In this document: in pieces, positions 7,103-11,631 of the stretch
How the letters are laid out: each line of letters begins with the position of its first letter
Position numbering within the stretch: the stretch's first letter is position 1
DNA from: Escherichia coli
GTDB lineage: Bacteria; Pseudomonadota; Gammaproteobacteria; Enterobacterales; Enterobacteriaceae
Reading direction: 5' to 3' (one strand)
NCBI RefSeq assembly: GCF_024298765.1
Contig: NZ_CP101210.1
DNA: 64,000 nucleotides
Notes under the pieces: model-generated
The model's input: the letters and a program-made list of their open reading frames with translations, nothing else
Database searches by the model: none
What the model was told of the DNA's origin: nothing
Translations under genes and position numbers: made by a program

Positions 7103-7336
7103 ATGAGGGGCTGTACATTACTCTTATTTTCCGAAGCCCCTTTCTTACGCGAACAGGAGGTTGCTGTCATAACAGCTTACCGCAATGTGTTTATCCAGGA
7201 TGACCCGGGAATGCATTTCCGTTGGGTTATCCGCAACGCGGAAGGTCAGCGACGCTGGCGCTGCCGGAATTCTGAACCCGATGCCGGAAAGGTGCTTAAT
7301 ACGCGGCTCGCCAGTGACGGTCCTCTAAGACAATAA
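7103..7336 (+). CDS. DUF905-family small protein (YkfF-like), prophage-remnant associated
   Basis: Recalled similarity to E. coli K-12 YkfF (motif [24 protein letters not shown]). Confidence 0.55.
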
Positions 7337-7435
7337 ACGTCATTCATTTCACCCATCAGGCTGCGTCTTCTCCGGGAGACGTGGCTTTTTCATTTATTAC
7401 ACCAGTAAATCTTAACCACCGATAAGGAGCAAAGT

Positions 7436-8257
7436 ATGCGATTAGCCAGTTGTTTTGGTTATGCTGCGAACCAGATACGCCGTGACCGTCCACTGACACA
7501 TGAAGAGCTGATGCACCATGTGCCGGGGATTTTCGGGGAAGAGAAACACACGTCCCGAAGCCAGAACTATACGTACATCCCCACCATCACCGTACTGGAA
7601 AGCCTGCAGCGGGAAGGCTTTCAGCCATTCTTCGCCTGCCAGACCTGTGTGCGCGACCCGGGCCGCCGGGGATACACAAAACACATGCTGCGCCTGCGCC
7701 GTAACGGAGAGATAAACGGAGAACATGTCCCTGAAATTATTCTGCTCAACTCTCATGACGGTACCTCCAGCTACCAGATGCTGCCGGGTTACTTCAGGTT
7801 CGTCTGCCAGAACGGATGCGTCTGTGGTCAGTCTCTGGGGGAAGTGCGTGTTCCGCACCGGGGAAATGTGGTGGACAGAGTCATTGAAGGGGCTTACGAG
7901 GTGGTGGGCGTGTTTGACCGGATAGAGGAGATGCGTGATGCCATGCAGTCGCTGATTCTGCCGCCACCGGCACGCCAGGCGCTGGCACAGGCGGCACTGA
8001 CTTACCGTTATGGTGACGAACATCGGCCCGTCACCACCGCCGACATTCTGACGCCACGACGCCGGGAGGATTACGGTAAGGACCTGTGGAGTACTTATCA
8101 GACCATCCAGGAGAATATGCTGAAAGGCGGGATTTCCGGTCGCAGTGCAAAAGGAAAACGTATCCACACCCGTGCCATTCACAGCATCGACACCGATATT
8201 AAGCTCAACCGCGCATTGTGGGTAATGGCAGAAACGCTGCTGGAGAGCCAGCGCTGA
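7436..8257 (+). CDS. YafZ-like DUF932 protein, 273 aa (CP4-type prophage gene)
   Basis: Length and sequence recalled as matching the K-12 CP4-6 YafZ family; RBS AAGGAG upstream. Confidence 0.8.
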   Translation: MRLASCFGYAANQIRRDRPLTHEELMHHVPGIFGEEKHTSRSQNYTYIPTITVLESLQREGFQPFFACQTCVRDPGRRGYTKHMLRLRRNGEINGEHVPEIILLNSHDGTSSYQMLPGYFRFVCQNGCVCGQSLGEVRVPHRGNVVDRVIEGAYEVVGVFDRIEEMRDAMQSLILPPPARQALAQAALTYRYGDEHRPVTTADILTPRRREDYGKDLWSTYQTIQENMLKGGISGRSAKGKRIHTRAIHSIDTDIKLNRALWVMAETLLESQR

Positions 8258-8502
8258 TGCAGCATGTCCCTGAAGGCGTGATTCAGGCACCAGAATCACC
8301 CGACGCCCCGGAGGCGCTGCCGGGGTGTCGTTCCATTTCTGATGATGACCTGTGCGCCTGGTGTACCCGTCTGCTTTACCGTCCCGGAGAAATCAGTCTG
8401 TGCAGACTGAGTACAGGCAATGGCATCTGGCCATCCGTCTGTGACCGGAACGGTTACGCGTACGGCTGTCCGGAATTTCAGCCGAATATCATTCATCCCT
8501 GA
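8257..8502 (+). CDS. Small cysteine-rich hypothetical protein
   Basis: ATG overlaps the yafZ-like stop (TGATG); 8 cysteines in 81 aa. Confidence 0.35.
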   Translation: MQHVPEGVIQAPESPDAPEALPGCRSISDDDLCAWCTRLLYRPGEISLCRLSTGNGIWPSVCDRNGYAYGCPEFQPNIIHP

Positions 8503-8595
8503 TATTACCGGGTCTCACGGTCAGTGATGAACGTGATGTTGCCAGCTCCCGACCTTTACTCCCTCTCATTTATTCACATTACAAGGATTTCATAC

Positions 8596-9069
8596 ATGAA
8601 AACATTGTCTCAGAACACCACCTCTTCGGCCTGTGCACCGGAGACTGGCCTGCAACAACTGGTTGCCACCATAGTCCCTGATGAACAGCGCATCAGCTTC
8701 TGGCCGCAGCATTTTGGCCTCATTCCACAGTGGGTGACCCTGGAGCCCCGTGTCTTCGGCTGGATGGACCGTCTGTGCGAAAACTACTGCGGTGGTATCT
8801 GGAATCTGTACACCCTGAACAACGGCGGGGCATTTATGGCCCCTGAACCGGATGACGATGATGACGAAACATGGGTACTGTTCAATGCCATGAACGGTAA
8901 CCGCGCTGAAATGAGCCCGGAAGCCGCCGGCATTGCCGCCTGTCTGATGACGTACAGTCATCACGCCTGCCGTACGGAGTGTTATGCCATGACGGTTCAT
9001 TATTACCGTCTGCGGGATTACGCCCTGCAGCATCCGGAATGCAGCGCCATTATGCGCATCATCGACTGA
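8596..9069 (+). CDS. Antirestriction protein (ArdB/KlcA-like; YafX/YfjX family)
   Basis: Recalled family similarity; RBS AAGGA upstream of ATG 8596; conserved position in CP4-type modules. Confidence 0.8.
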   Translation: MKTLSQNTTSSACAPETGLQQLVATIVPDEQRISFWPQHFGLIPQWVTLEPRVFGWMDRLCENYCGGIWNLYTLNNGGAFMAPEPDDDDDETWVLFNAMNGNRAEMSPEAAGIAACLMTYSHHACRTECYAMTVHYYRLRDYALQHPECSAIMRIID

Positions 9070-9084
9070 ATGGAGGCAGGGACA

Positions 9085-9561
9085 ATGCAGCAGCTTTCCT
9101 TTCTGCCCGGAGAAATGACAACCAGAGAGCGCAGCCTCATTCTGCGGGCCCTGAAAACCCTGGACCGCCATCTTCATGAACCCGGCGTGGCCTTCACCTC
9201 CACCCGTGCGGCACGGGAATGGCTGATTCTGAACATGGCGGGACTGGAGCGTGAAGAGTTCCGGGTGCTGTATCTGAATAACCAGAATCAGCTGATTGCC
9301 GGTGAAACCCTCTTCACCGGCACCATCAACCGCACGGAAGTCCATCCCCGGGAAGTGATTAAACGCGCCCTGTATCACAATGCCGCAGCCGTGGTGCTGG
9401 CACATAATCACCCGTCCGGTGAAGTCACACCCAGCAAGGCAGACCGGCTTATCACGGAACGTCTGGTACAGGCACTGGGCCTGGTGGATATCCGGGTGCC
9501 GGACCATCTGATAGTCGGTGGCAGCCAGGTTTTCTCCTTTGCCGAACATGGTCTGCTTTAA
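9085..9561 (+). CDS. RadC-like JAB-domain protein (YkfG/YeeS/YfjY family)
   Basis: JAMM-type motif HNHPSG; start MQQLSFLPGE as in the K-12 paralogs. Confidence 0.85.
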   Translation: MQQLSFLPGEMTTRERSLILRALKTLDRHLHEPGVAFTSTRAAREWLILNMAGLEREEFRVLYLNNQNQLIAGETLFTGTINRTEVHPREVIKRALYHNAAAVVLAHNHPSGEVTPSKADRLITERLVQALGLVDIRVPDHLIVGGSQVFSFAEHGLL

Positions 9562-9845: not shown

Positions 9846-9863
9846 GTCAGTAAGGGCATTCTG

Positions 9864-10508
9864 ATGAGCAGAATTATCACCACCACCGTGTATACACTGC
9901 ATGAGCTATCCTCCACCGCACAGGAAAAAGCCCGCGACTGGTACCGTCAGCATCATGCTGACAGCAACTGGTATGAAAACGTGTATGAGGACTTCAGGGA
10001 GGTCTGTGGCATTTTCGGAATTGACCTCCGCCAGCGCGTTTTCCGGCTCAGCAACGGCAGGTTTATGGAAGAGCCGTGCATCTGGTTCAGCGGATTCTGC
10101 AGCCAGGGGGACGGAGCCTGTTTTGAAGGGCGCTGGCACTGGCAGCCAGCGACACCCCGGAAAATCAGGGAATATGCCCCTCAGGACCGTGAGCTTCATC
10201 GTATCGCGGATGCCCTGCAGGCGGTACAGAAGCGTAACTTCTGGCAGTTACAGGCTGAAATCAGTCACCGGGGACGTTACTGCCATCCGTACAGCATGGA
10301 TATCACCGTCACCCGGAACAGTCCGACTGGTCAGGCACTGACAGCCGATGCGGAAGCCGCTGTCAGCGAAGCCCTGCGCGACCTGGCCTTCTGGCTGTAC
10401 CGCCAGCTGGAAAACGAGTACGACTGGCTGACCTCAGACGCCGCTGTAGATGAGGCCATTCACATCAATGCATATACCTTCACCGAAGCCGGTCTCCACG
10501 CCGGCTGA
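9864..10508 (+). CDS. Hypothetical protein, 214 aa, inserted between the DUF987 gene and the antitoxin
   Basis: Long clean ORF with good codon usage; family not recognised. Confidence 0.55.
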   Translation: MSRIITTTVYTLHELSSTAQEKARDWYRQHHADSNWYENVYEDFREVCGIFGIDLRQRVFRLSNGRFMEEPCIWFSGFCSQGDGACFEGRWHWQPATPRKIREYAPQDRELHRIADALQAVQKRNFWQLQAEISHRGRYCHPYSMDITVTRNSPTGQALTADAEAAVSEALRDLAFWLYRQLENEYDWLTSDAAVDEAIHINAYTFTEAGLHAG

Positions 10509-10557
10509 CCTGTCATCGTTAAACTATCATTCACCGATTTTCTGTGAGGACTTTATC

Positions 10558-10932
10558 GTGTCAGACACGCTCCATGAAACAAATTATCCCGACGACAACA
10601 ACGACCGCCCCTGGTGGGGGCTACCCTGCACCGTGACGCCCTGTTTCGGGGCACGTCTGGTGCAGGAGGGCAATCAGTTGCATTACCTTGCCGACCGCGC
10701 CGGTATCAGAGGGCAGTTCAGCGACGCGGATGCATACCATCTGGACCAGGCTTTTCCACTGCTGATGAAACAACTGGAACTCATGCTCACCATCGGTGAA
10801 CTGAATCCCCGCCATCAGCATACCGTCACGCTGTATGCCAGAGGGCTGACCTGCGAAGCCGACACCCTCGGCAGCTGTGGTTACGTTTATATGGCTGTTT
10901 ATCCGACACTGGCACCCGCAACCACCTCATAA
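10558..10932 (+). CDS. CbeA-type antitoxin (YeeU/YafW/YfjZ family)
   Basis: Strong recalled similarity to K-12 YeeU ([23 protein letters not shown]...); GTG start. Confidence 0.8.
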
Positions 10933-10978
10933 CCCCGAATATCTCACCTTTAGCACTACCAGTTACAGAGAACTTAAG

Positions 10979-11356
10979 ATGAAAACATTACCTGACACAC
11001 ACGTACGGGAGGCATCGCGCTGCCCGTCTCCCGTCACCATCTGGCAGACACTGCTCACCCGACTGTTGGACCAGCATTACGGCCTCACACTGAATGACAC
11101 ACCGTTCGCTGATGAACGTGTGATTGAGCAGCATATTGAGGCAGGCATTTCACTGTGCGATGCGGTGAACTTTCTCGTTGAAAAATACGCACTGGTACGT
11201 ACCGACCAGCCAGGATTCAGCGCTTGTACCCGTTCTCAGTTAATAAACAGTATTGATATCCTCCGGGCCCGCCGGGCAACCGGCCTGATGACCCGCAGCA
11301 ACTACAGAATGGTGAACGACATCATCCGGGGTGAACATTCGGAGGCGAAACGATGA
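10979..11356 (+). CDS. CbtA-type toxin (YeeV/YkfI/YpjF family; cytoskeleton-targeting type IV toxin)
   Basis: Strong recalled similarity to K-12 CbtA paralogs ([30 protein letters not shown]...). Confidence 0.8.
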
Positions 11357-11631
11357 AACTGACTCTGACGCTCGAAGCAGACAGCGTTAACGTGCAGGCA
11401 CTGAACATGGGGCGAATTGTCGTTGACGTCGATGGTATTGACCCCGCTGAGTTGAATAATAAGGTCGCTGAAAACGGTTATTCACTCCGCGTGGTGGATG
11501 CTCCCGAACAGCAGACAACCGACTCTCCACCACCGTTTACTGCCCTTACCGACATACGTTCGTTGCAGTACCGCACATATCACGGAAAAGGACAACGCCT
11601 GGCTGTACTCACTGTCACATCAGACGAATGA
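11353..11631 (+). CDS. YeeW-like small protein
   Basis: ATG overlaps the toxin stop (ATGA); same position as yeeW in CP4-44. Confidence 0.5.

Follow-up and report, generated by a model that had tools for sequence, protein, structure and literature searches.

The window analysed here, a stretch of 64,000 nucleotides, is part of the Escherichia coli chromosome and carries the rrnH operon (with ileV, alaV and aspU), the stretch from dkgB to dnaQ and, after it, aspV, a tRNA-Asp(GUC) gene on the minus strand (16618-16694; ARAGORN, Rfam and comparison with K-12). The subject of this work is the gene array that ends beside aspV, the centre of which (7103-11631) had been described in a first, sequence-only reading as a CP4-type prophage-remnant module, CP4-type elements being tRNA-linked E. 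coli genomic islands with P4-like integrases. All families named in that reading were recovered on the plus strand at the places given, each with a Pfam match: DUF905 (YkfF-like; 7103-7336; PF06006, E 5e-17), DUF932 (YafZ/YfjQ-like; 7436-8257; PF06067, E 6e-51), an ArdB/KlcA-type antirestriction protein of 157 aa (8596-9069; PF03230, E 4e-37), a RadC-like JAB/JAMM protein (YeeS/YkfG/LfgB-like; 9085-9561; PF04002, E 2e-44), DUF987 (YeeT-like; 9624-9845; PF06174, E 4e-39), a CbeA/YeeU-family type IV antitoxin of 124 aa (10558-10932; PF06154, E 1e-53), an intact CbtA/YeeV-family toxin of 125 aa (10979-11356; PF06755, E 5e-63) and a YeeW-like DUF5983 gene that proved to be a pseudogene (11353-11845; DUF5983_N at 11353-11631, E 5e-28). 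The gene list was incomplete, as the array holds two further open reading frames (ORFs) on the same strand, one encoding 81 aa and rich in Cys (8257-8502; annotated as hypothetical), the other encoding 214 aa and belonging to an uncharacterised family (9864-10508; phrog_5162 match), neither of which has a Pfam, NCBIfam or PADLOC match. The PADLOC scan detected no known defence-system protein among the ten module ORFs.

While the coordinates 7103-11631 capture the middle of the module, the conserved block runs on at both sides; the YeeW-like gene itself ends at 11845, and the module as a whole spans from before position 1 to 16497. Its first gene, of which the 3′ part lies at 1..234 on the plus strand (tblastn, blastn), encodes a YeeP/YkfA/YfjP-like GTPase; residues 214-290 of the O157 GTPase map to positions 1-231 of the window (tblastn), and the gene starts approximately 200 bp to the left of it. 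This GTPase gene has suffered an internal deletion of approximately 430 bp (431 bp are missing relative to the comparison locus L008, blastn), and what is left of it shares 90% identity with the yeeP pseudogene of K-12, its N- and C-terminal parts matching YkfA/YfjP separately (tblastn). At the other end, the intact O157 DUF5983 protein splits over frames 1 and 2 of the window (tblastn), the frameshift lying near 11552-11562 in agreement with the RefSeq label ‘frameshifted’. In intact copies such as the O157 serX island, DUF5983, DUF957 and DUF4942 stand in direct succession, the last of them adjoining the tRNA gene. In O157 the DUF5983 and DUF957 genes are just 12 bp apart, whereas in the window two insertion sequence (IS) elements on the minus strand have entered between them, namely a frameshifted IS630-family transposase gene (11924-12912) and a degenerate IS66 (tnpC 13060-14653, tnpB 14684-15034 and a tnpA fragment 15031-15322), both assigned from the RefSeq annotation of strain 104, in which this stretch is identical. 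Because of this insertion the DUF957 remnant (15364-15558, plus strand; annotation and tblastn) is truncated at its N-terminus, with residues 17-65 of the O157 protein aligning at 15403-15549 (tblastn). The last gene of the module is a DUF4942 pseudogene with two in-frame stops (15640-16497, plus strand; PF13708 on its first part), which matches its O157 counterpart at 67% identity over 273 aa and ends 120 bp from aspV. Owing to the lack of an intact integrase, the GTPase deletion, the DUF5983 frameshift, the DUF957 truncation and the DUF4942 stops, the element in the window is regarded as decayed and probably immobile.

Comparison of the window proteins with the K-12 cryptic elements CP4-6, CP4-44 and CP4-57 was performed by tblastn, as the sequence-only reading had proposed, and the similarity on which that reading depended was clearly present, at 46-97% identity with E-values from 5e-18 to 9e-138. 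The highest values were those of the RadC-like protein (97% to YeeS, 81% to YkfG and 78% to YfjY, also called LfgB) and DUF987 (96% to YeeT), followed by the CbeA-family antitoxin (89% to K-12 CbeA), the CbtA-family toxin (85% to K-12 CbtA), DUF932 (74-75% to YfjQ/YafZ), the antirestriction protein (67-75% to YafX/YfjX), the YeeW-like product (62% to its K-12 counterpart) and DUF905 (46% to YkfF); no counterpart of the 81-aa or the 214-aa ORF was found in the three K-12 elements. ORF and annotation maps established a shared order on one strand, being GTPase, a cargo segment, DUF932, ArdB, RadC, DUF987, antitoxin, toxin, DUF5983, DUF957 and DUF4942. The nearest K-12 relative by sequence is CP4-44, the tail of which reads yeeP ... 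yeeS-yeeT-cbeA-cbtA-yeeW-yoeD-yoeF and agrees with the window in gene order, strand and the cargo slot after the GTPase gene. It differs in that the K-12 slot is occupied by flu (Ag43) and yeeR, in that the window possesses the 81-aa and 214-aa ORFs, and in its site, which is the yeeA/tmaR region and not aspV; the CP4-44 site of other strains does contain the same dynamin operon and DUF932/ArdB tail as the window. The assignment to the integrase-distal module of all three K-12 elements was upheld by tblastn and annotation, with the reservation that K-12 CP4-44 lacks the DUF905, DUF932 and antirestriction part, so that, of the three, only two have the complete gene set (GTPase, DUF932, DUF905, ArdB, RadC, DUF987, antitoxin and toxin) in common with the window, namely CP4-6 (thrW: ykfI-yafW-ykfH-ykfG-yafX-ykfF ... 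yafZ-ykfA ... intF) and CP4-57 (yfjP-yfjQ ... lfgA-lfgB-ypjJ-yfjZ-ypjF). CP4-6 also resembles the window in that the toxin end of its tail abuts an intact tRNA gene, ykfI lying beside thrW, with intF at the far end, on the strand of the tail and at a distance of 33 kb. Both elements nevertheless differ from the window in their lower identity (46-81%), in the position of DUF932 far upstream of DUF905 and in the absence of the dynamin operon and the 214-aa gene; in addition, CP4-6 has an intact integrase gene, intF, while the aspV island has none. CP4-57 likewise has an intact integrase gene, intA. Of the 5426 complete E. coli genomes, 5026 contain matches to a 5-kb core of the module, the median being 3 places per genome (range 1-18).

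The view that its position next to aspV marks the array as part of an integrated element was supported by comparison with K-12, colinearity with which ends 6 nt past the 3′ end of aspV, at about 16612 (blastn), with this 3′ end facing the island. The first 17 kb of the window are 100% identical and colinear to strain 104 and several other isolates, and in strain 104 approximately 96 kb of foreign DNA extend from yafV to aspV, harbouring a tos-type repeats-in-toxin/type I secretion system (RTX/T1SS) cluster, pic, a disrupted cdi/hemagglutinin locus, sugar-utilisation genes, a TonB-receptor/ABC iron-uptake cluster, many IS elements and pseudogenes. This yafV-aspV content fits the published pathogenicity island (PAI) PAI-CFT073-aspV, of 100 kb with Pic, TosA and the fbp system (PMC7545054), which is also listed elsewhere (PMC3573123). 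CFT073 and ABU 83972 match the first 17 kb of the window at 100% identity, except for extra IS copies in both. The island of the uropathogenic E. coli strain CFT073 (PAI III) shares tos, pic and iron uptake, and the window ArdB is the CFT073 protein that was crystallised as 2WJ9; the CFT073 island differs by the insertion of ISEc45 and ISEc10, both of which are absent from strain 104, the colinear match of the window. Base composition, at 52-56% G+C in the module versus about 50% in its flanks, does not discriminate. At the island-tRNA junction (16498-16617) a tandem (A/G)ATGGCATAC repeat (16542-16563) with 12-bp spacing is followed by a hairpin (about 16576-16602) just 3′ of aspV. Repeat and hairpin are common to the end of the O157 serX island, where the pairing of the hairpin is kept through base changes, and are absent at the ileX junction and in CP4-6. 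Candidate roles are an arm site for a recombinase or Xis in the case of the repeat, and a tRNA terminator supplied by the island in that of the hairpin.

The sequence-only reading had also cast the module as the likely vehicle of an operon on the plus strand that encodes a dynamin-family GTPase (452-2848; Pfam Dynamin_N), an RdcB/YjcZ-like protein (2845-3750; Pfam YjcZ) and a patatin-like phospholipase (3747-4817; Pfam Patatin). This operon (452-4817) is situated inside the module, with the YeeP-like GTPase gene before it and the DUF905/DUF932 tail after it. Among 5426 complete E. coli genomes, 2444 (about 45%) possess it, with up to 5 copies per genome. In every context opened it was flanked by a YeeP-like GTPase gene on one side and a DUF932...DUF4942 tail on the other, be it at aspV (this window), at the CP4-44 site next to tmaR/yeeA (L008 and L014), at serX in O157 after cah (L009) or at ileX in a tellurite-resistance island (L015); pairwise blastn with the copies at the other sites gave colinear matches at 85-97% identity, and the GTPase-dynamin junction (700 bp) is contiguous in 1973 genomes. 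The tails of the O157:H7 serX island (with cah) and of the ileX island have the order GTPase, (cah), dynamin, RdcB, patatin, DUF932, ArdB, JAB, DUF987, YeeU, CbtA, DUF5983, DUF957, DUF4942 and tRNA 3′ end, and resemble the window at 85-96% DNA identity over most of their length; they differ in their other tRNA sites, in their intact GTPase, DUF5983, DUF957 and DUF4942 genes and in lacking the 214-aa gene. As the same arrangement is found at four chromosomal sites, the operon fills the cargo slot of the module, which supports the vehicle idea. The variable slot would allow cargo to hitch-hike, Ag43 in K-12, Cah together with the dynamin operon in O157 and, in the window, the dynamin operon. This bears on the interpretation of the operon, which travels horizontally as the cargo of an island module that is very common and sits at several tRNA sites, and is not a core gene cluster.

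Taken together, we assign a probability of roughly 0.85 to the reading that the block represents the conserved tail, distal to the integrase, of a CP4-type genomic island of E. coli, here forming the aspV-proximal end of a mosaic island of approximately 96 kb of the PAI-CFT073-aspV type. With respect to function, the array would serve as an establishment-and-maintenance (addiction) cassette for the island. On arrival of the DNA in a new cell, anti-restriction and other entry functions would come into play, and later loss of the island would be penalised by the toxin-antitoxin pair. Several points weigh against this assignment. A second copy of the aspV 3′ end (attR) was absent from the 49 kb inspected, besides aspV and aspU themselves, and a cognate integrase was found neither in the island nor at its yafV end, the only trace being a 200-aa fragment on the opposite strand; because the att sites are not intact and no cognate integrase is present, we infer integration from comparison. 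To our knowledge no oriT (origin of transfer) or relaxase has been described for these islands. A consensus scan of 6400-12000 revealed no sigma-70-like promoter on the plus strand, and the operon structure is hence carried over from K-12. The establishment role of DUF905, DUF932, DUF987, DUF5983, DUF957, DUF4942 and the 214-aa protein is putative, and the host-level stress roles suggested by work in K-12 (PMC10846083) are not predicted by a purely selfish model. The lack of a P4-type integrase and of flanking direct repeats does fit a decayed remnant. The 200-aa integrase fragment was considered as the cognate integrase and rejected, as it lies on the opposite strand inside a 10.7-kb segment that is absent from the colinear backbone of L008 (strain WP4-S18).

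The word prophage, as applied to these elements, could be taken literally, in which case the module would be a phage-derived remnant, an accessory (moron) region left over from a P4-like satellite prophage. The homologous K-12 regions are annotated as cryptic prophages and two of CP4-6, CP4-44 and CP4-57 carry P4-type integrases, AlpA-type regulators and inovirus-Gp2/YagK/YfjJ-family genes lie upstream in the same islands, most module proteins match PHROG families and lytic phages have fold relatives of the 214-aa protein. Such an origin is nevertheless very improbable, given that just one of 50,697 phage records matches the 4.9-kb core, this being an unannotated 3.2-kb fragment, that no capsid, tail, lysis or P4 core gene was seen in the annotations of the ~96-kb island, and that those homologs that could be placed lie in the leading or establishment regions of conjugative plasmids. 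At the DNA level the core is matched by at least 5000 plasmid records, 85% of which are typed as conjugative, these matches being mainly on DUF932 (yubP) and the JAB gene over short stretches at 67-76% identity. The leading region of one IncF plasmid reads ssb, DUF905, ParB, psiB, hok, ..., DUF932, SLT and then traM, with oriT/traM adjoining, and on an IncL/M plasmid JAB, DUF4942, Hha, DUF1380 and antirestriction genes stand together; plasmid leading regions are known to concentrate anti-defence genes (PMC11541004, Samuel et al. 2024). In likeness to such regions the island tail contains homologs of DUF905, DUF932, JAB, DUF4942 and ArdB/KlcA, forms an array of small genes on one strand and includes a toxin-antitoxin pair, although it differs in being chromosomal and tRNA-linked and in having no oriT, ssb, psiB or relaxase adjoining. 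Since phage relatives are nearly absent and plasmid leading regions supply homologs, prophage is best regarded as a historical name and the tail, by its content, as being of the conjugative-element establishment type, while the term remnant remains apt as no intact integrase was seen. More generally, a so-called cryptic-prophage module has essentially no relatives among sequenced phages and clear ones in the leading regions of conjugative plasmids.

It is tempting to go further and to view the CP4-type tail as the equivalent, on a chromosomal island, of the leading region of a plasmid. It would then be an anti-defence and establishment cassette on one strand, the first part to reach the recipient on mobilisation of the island in single-stranded form, though we offer this as speculation with a small chance of being correct. 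If true, DUF905, DUF932, DUF987, DUF5983, DUF957, DUF4942 and the 214-aa protein would represent unrecognised anti-defence or establishment proteins, and the dynamin/RdcB/patatin operon would be cargo spreading in the cassette slot. A still-active version, in which the island or a sub-element is excised and mobilised by conjugation as single-stranded DNA (ssDNA), so that the tRNA-proximal tail enters first and is expressed early, is doubtful to a greater degree. It would account for the orientation of the tail genes, all on one strand and pointing to the island end, and it is in keeping with the homologs just listed in plasmid leading or establishment regions, with the 214-aa protein standing beside ArdC-like and ParB-N genes in alphaproteobacterial conjugative plasmids, with leading regions being known anti-defence islands (PMC11541004) and with a nickase-like inovirus-Gp2-family gene in the same islands. 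However, IS elements and pseudogenes disrupt the module here, neither an oriT nor a relaxase nor an intact integrase was recognised in the island annotations, no dedicated oriT search having been made, and an Rfam scan of 1-17000 at a permissive E-value, covering radC-type and ssDNA-promoter-like motifs, returned only tRNA and one chance-level match, with no known structured RNA or ssDNA-promoter-like family. That the genes are instead a domesticated host module, kept for stress tolerance, biofilm formation or growth arrest of the cell, has some appeal but is on balance unlikely. The K-12 yfjXY-ypjJ-yfjZF operon is induced via MqsR/MqsA and deletion of yfjY (lfgB) causes sensitivity to H2O2, acid and heat (PMC10846083), and the module is near-universal (5026/5426 E. 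coli genomes); yet its copy number varies from 1 to 18 per genome, it is always at island ends beside tRNA genes, it decays frequently (cbtA is frameshifted in L008 and L014, and the window has its pseudogenes) and close homologs reside on plasmids. These four points fit a mobile-element function, although the host-module and mobile-element readings do not exclude each other. With the module taken as an island tail, the finding mainly supplies context, in that it identifies the window as the aspV end of a pathogenicity island already described from extraintestinal pathogenic E. coli (ExPEC). A CP4-type tail inside an island of the PAI-CFT073-aspV type is an already known, ordinary feature, and what remains new is the leading-region reading and the small genes of the module, which holds optional genes of uncharacterised function, notably the 214-aa family.

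The genes for ArdB, the RadC-like protein, DUF987, CbeA and CbtA are all intact in the window. The antirestriction protein is identical to PDB 2WJ9 over 157/157 residues, and the 181-aa ORF is identical over 181/181 residues, including the 24 upstream residues; it thus shows the ArdB fold by identity with 2WJ9_A in addition to its PF03230 domain, and it matches KlcA 2KMG at E 6e-21. Its start is ambiguous, as RefSeq and a 2010 study use the 157-aa ATG start (8596), whereas the PDB 2WJ9 record corresponds to the 181-aa ORF with a GTG start (8524). Its length and mass, 157 aa and 17,832 Da, are those of ArdB_CFT (PMC2836571). ArdB and KlcA proteins inhibit all four families of type I restriction-modification systems in vivo but do not inhibit EcoKI in vitro (PMC2836571, Serfiotis-Mitsa et al.), and the window protein, being identical to ArdB_CFT, is predicted to block all four type I families in vivo, as was reported for ArdB_CFT. 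The RadC-like JAB protein retains the metal-binding motif H-x-H-P-x-G ... P-S-x-x-D, present in the translation as HNHPSGEVTPSKAD, scores above the cutoff of TIGR00608 and matches the RadC homolog PDB 2QLC at E 3e-25. In CP4-57, the homologous genes yfjX-yfjY-ypjJ-yfjZ-ypjF make up a single operon, and its RadC-like product, YfjY (LfgB), has been found to act as a protease (PMC10846083). No PDB relative of DUF932 was found by sequence search.

The antitoxin gene (PF06154) directly precedes the toxin gene (PF06755). CbtA-family toxins are neutralised by CbeA-family antitoxins, and the two window genes are accordingly placed, by family membership, as a putative type IV toxin-antitoxin pair. F65 of the toxin does not vary across the alignment, while R15 is replaced by Cys, the residue that YpjF and YkfI also have at this position. 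CbtA, YkfI and YpjF bind FtsZ, for which F65 is needed, CbtA and YpjF also bind MreB, and YpjF and YkfI remain toxic with Cys at position 15 (PMC5624674). At the CP4-44 site of other strains cbtA is frameshifted and cbeA intact (L008:22673-23046, L014:19673-20046), an instance of toxin decay in the same module family.

Of the two optional ORFs, that of 81 aa starts in overlap with the DUF932 stop codon and is present in the L015 copy of the module but absent from the L008 copy; it has 10 nucleotide differences giving 6 amino acid changes, too few to judge selection, and is listed as a putative protein-coding gene. The 214-aa gene is an optional cassette between DUF987 and CbeA, absent from K-12, L008, L009 and L015, which was found in 2000 of 5426 E. 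coli genomes. Its family comprises 2895 homologs, including roughly 60%-identical proteins from Alphaproteobacteria, many of them on conjugative plasmids, and has the conserved motifs SQGDGACFEG and HRGRYxHxYSM; on the Haematobacter plasmid pOT1-2 the homolog stands among genes for an ArdC-like zincin, DUF2958, ParB-N, a strawberry-notch nucleoside triphosphatase and toprim. A PDB sequence search with the 214-aa protein gave no match, and its AlphaFold model, although confident, has no convincing PDB fold match, its only fold relatives (BFVD) being uncharacterised lytic-phage proteins. The legacy name ‘antitoxin of toxin-antitoxin stability system’ was considered, and no basis for it was found. 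Some E. coli lineages have an in-frame fusion of the 214-aa gene with cbeA (corresponding to the 10450-10560 region of the window), which yields proteins of 342-343 aa with PF06154 (P0003, P0020); the fusion may reflect a functional link to the toxin-antitoxin pair, or it may merely be a small deletion.

Between the operon and DUF905 the module holds three plus-strand ORFs without a Pfam match, a YkfB/YfjT-like gene (4946-5413; tblastn 35% to CP4-6 ykfB and CP4-57 yfjT) and genes for proteins of 209 aa (5469-6098) and 150 aa (6533-6985), the latter two proteins each with a hydrophobic N-terminus suggesting an export signal; the segment 4946-6985 differs in the L008, L009 and L015 copies (blastn). 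The 10.7-kb segment just to the left of the window (L005:5042-15704) is inserted into a colinear CP4-type backbone and carries a TonB-dependent receptor gene, the ABC iron-uptake cluster, an ETEC_3214-family gene, the 200-aa integrase fragment and the gene for a 366-aa Cys-rich protein, while a gene annotated as ‘PFL_4695 family integrating conjugative element protein’ is located at the yafV end of the aspV island. Islands with this tail also carry inovirus-Gp2/YagK/YfjJ-family (nickase-like) genes, paired zinc-ribbon genes, Hha and AlpA-type regulators; these genes and the PFL_4695-family gene were noted at L010:43136-45960, L008:3930-5555 and L016:30835-31035. The promoter and terminator scan of 6400-12000, uninformative on operon structure, gave only a terminator-like hairpin of 13 pairs followed by a T-run between DUF905 and DUF932 (7358-7387), which suggests that DUF905 is perhaps transcribed apart from the rest of the tail.

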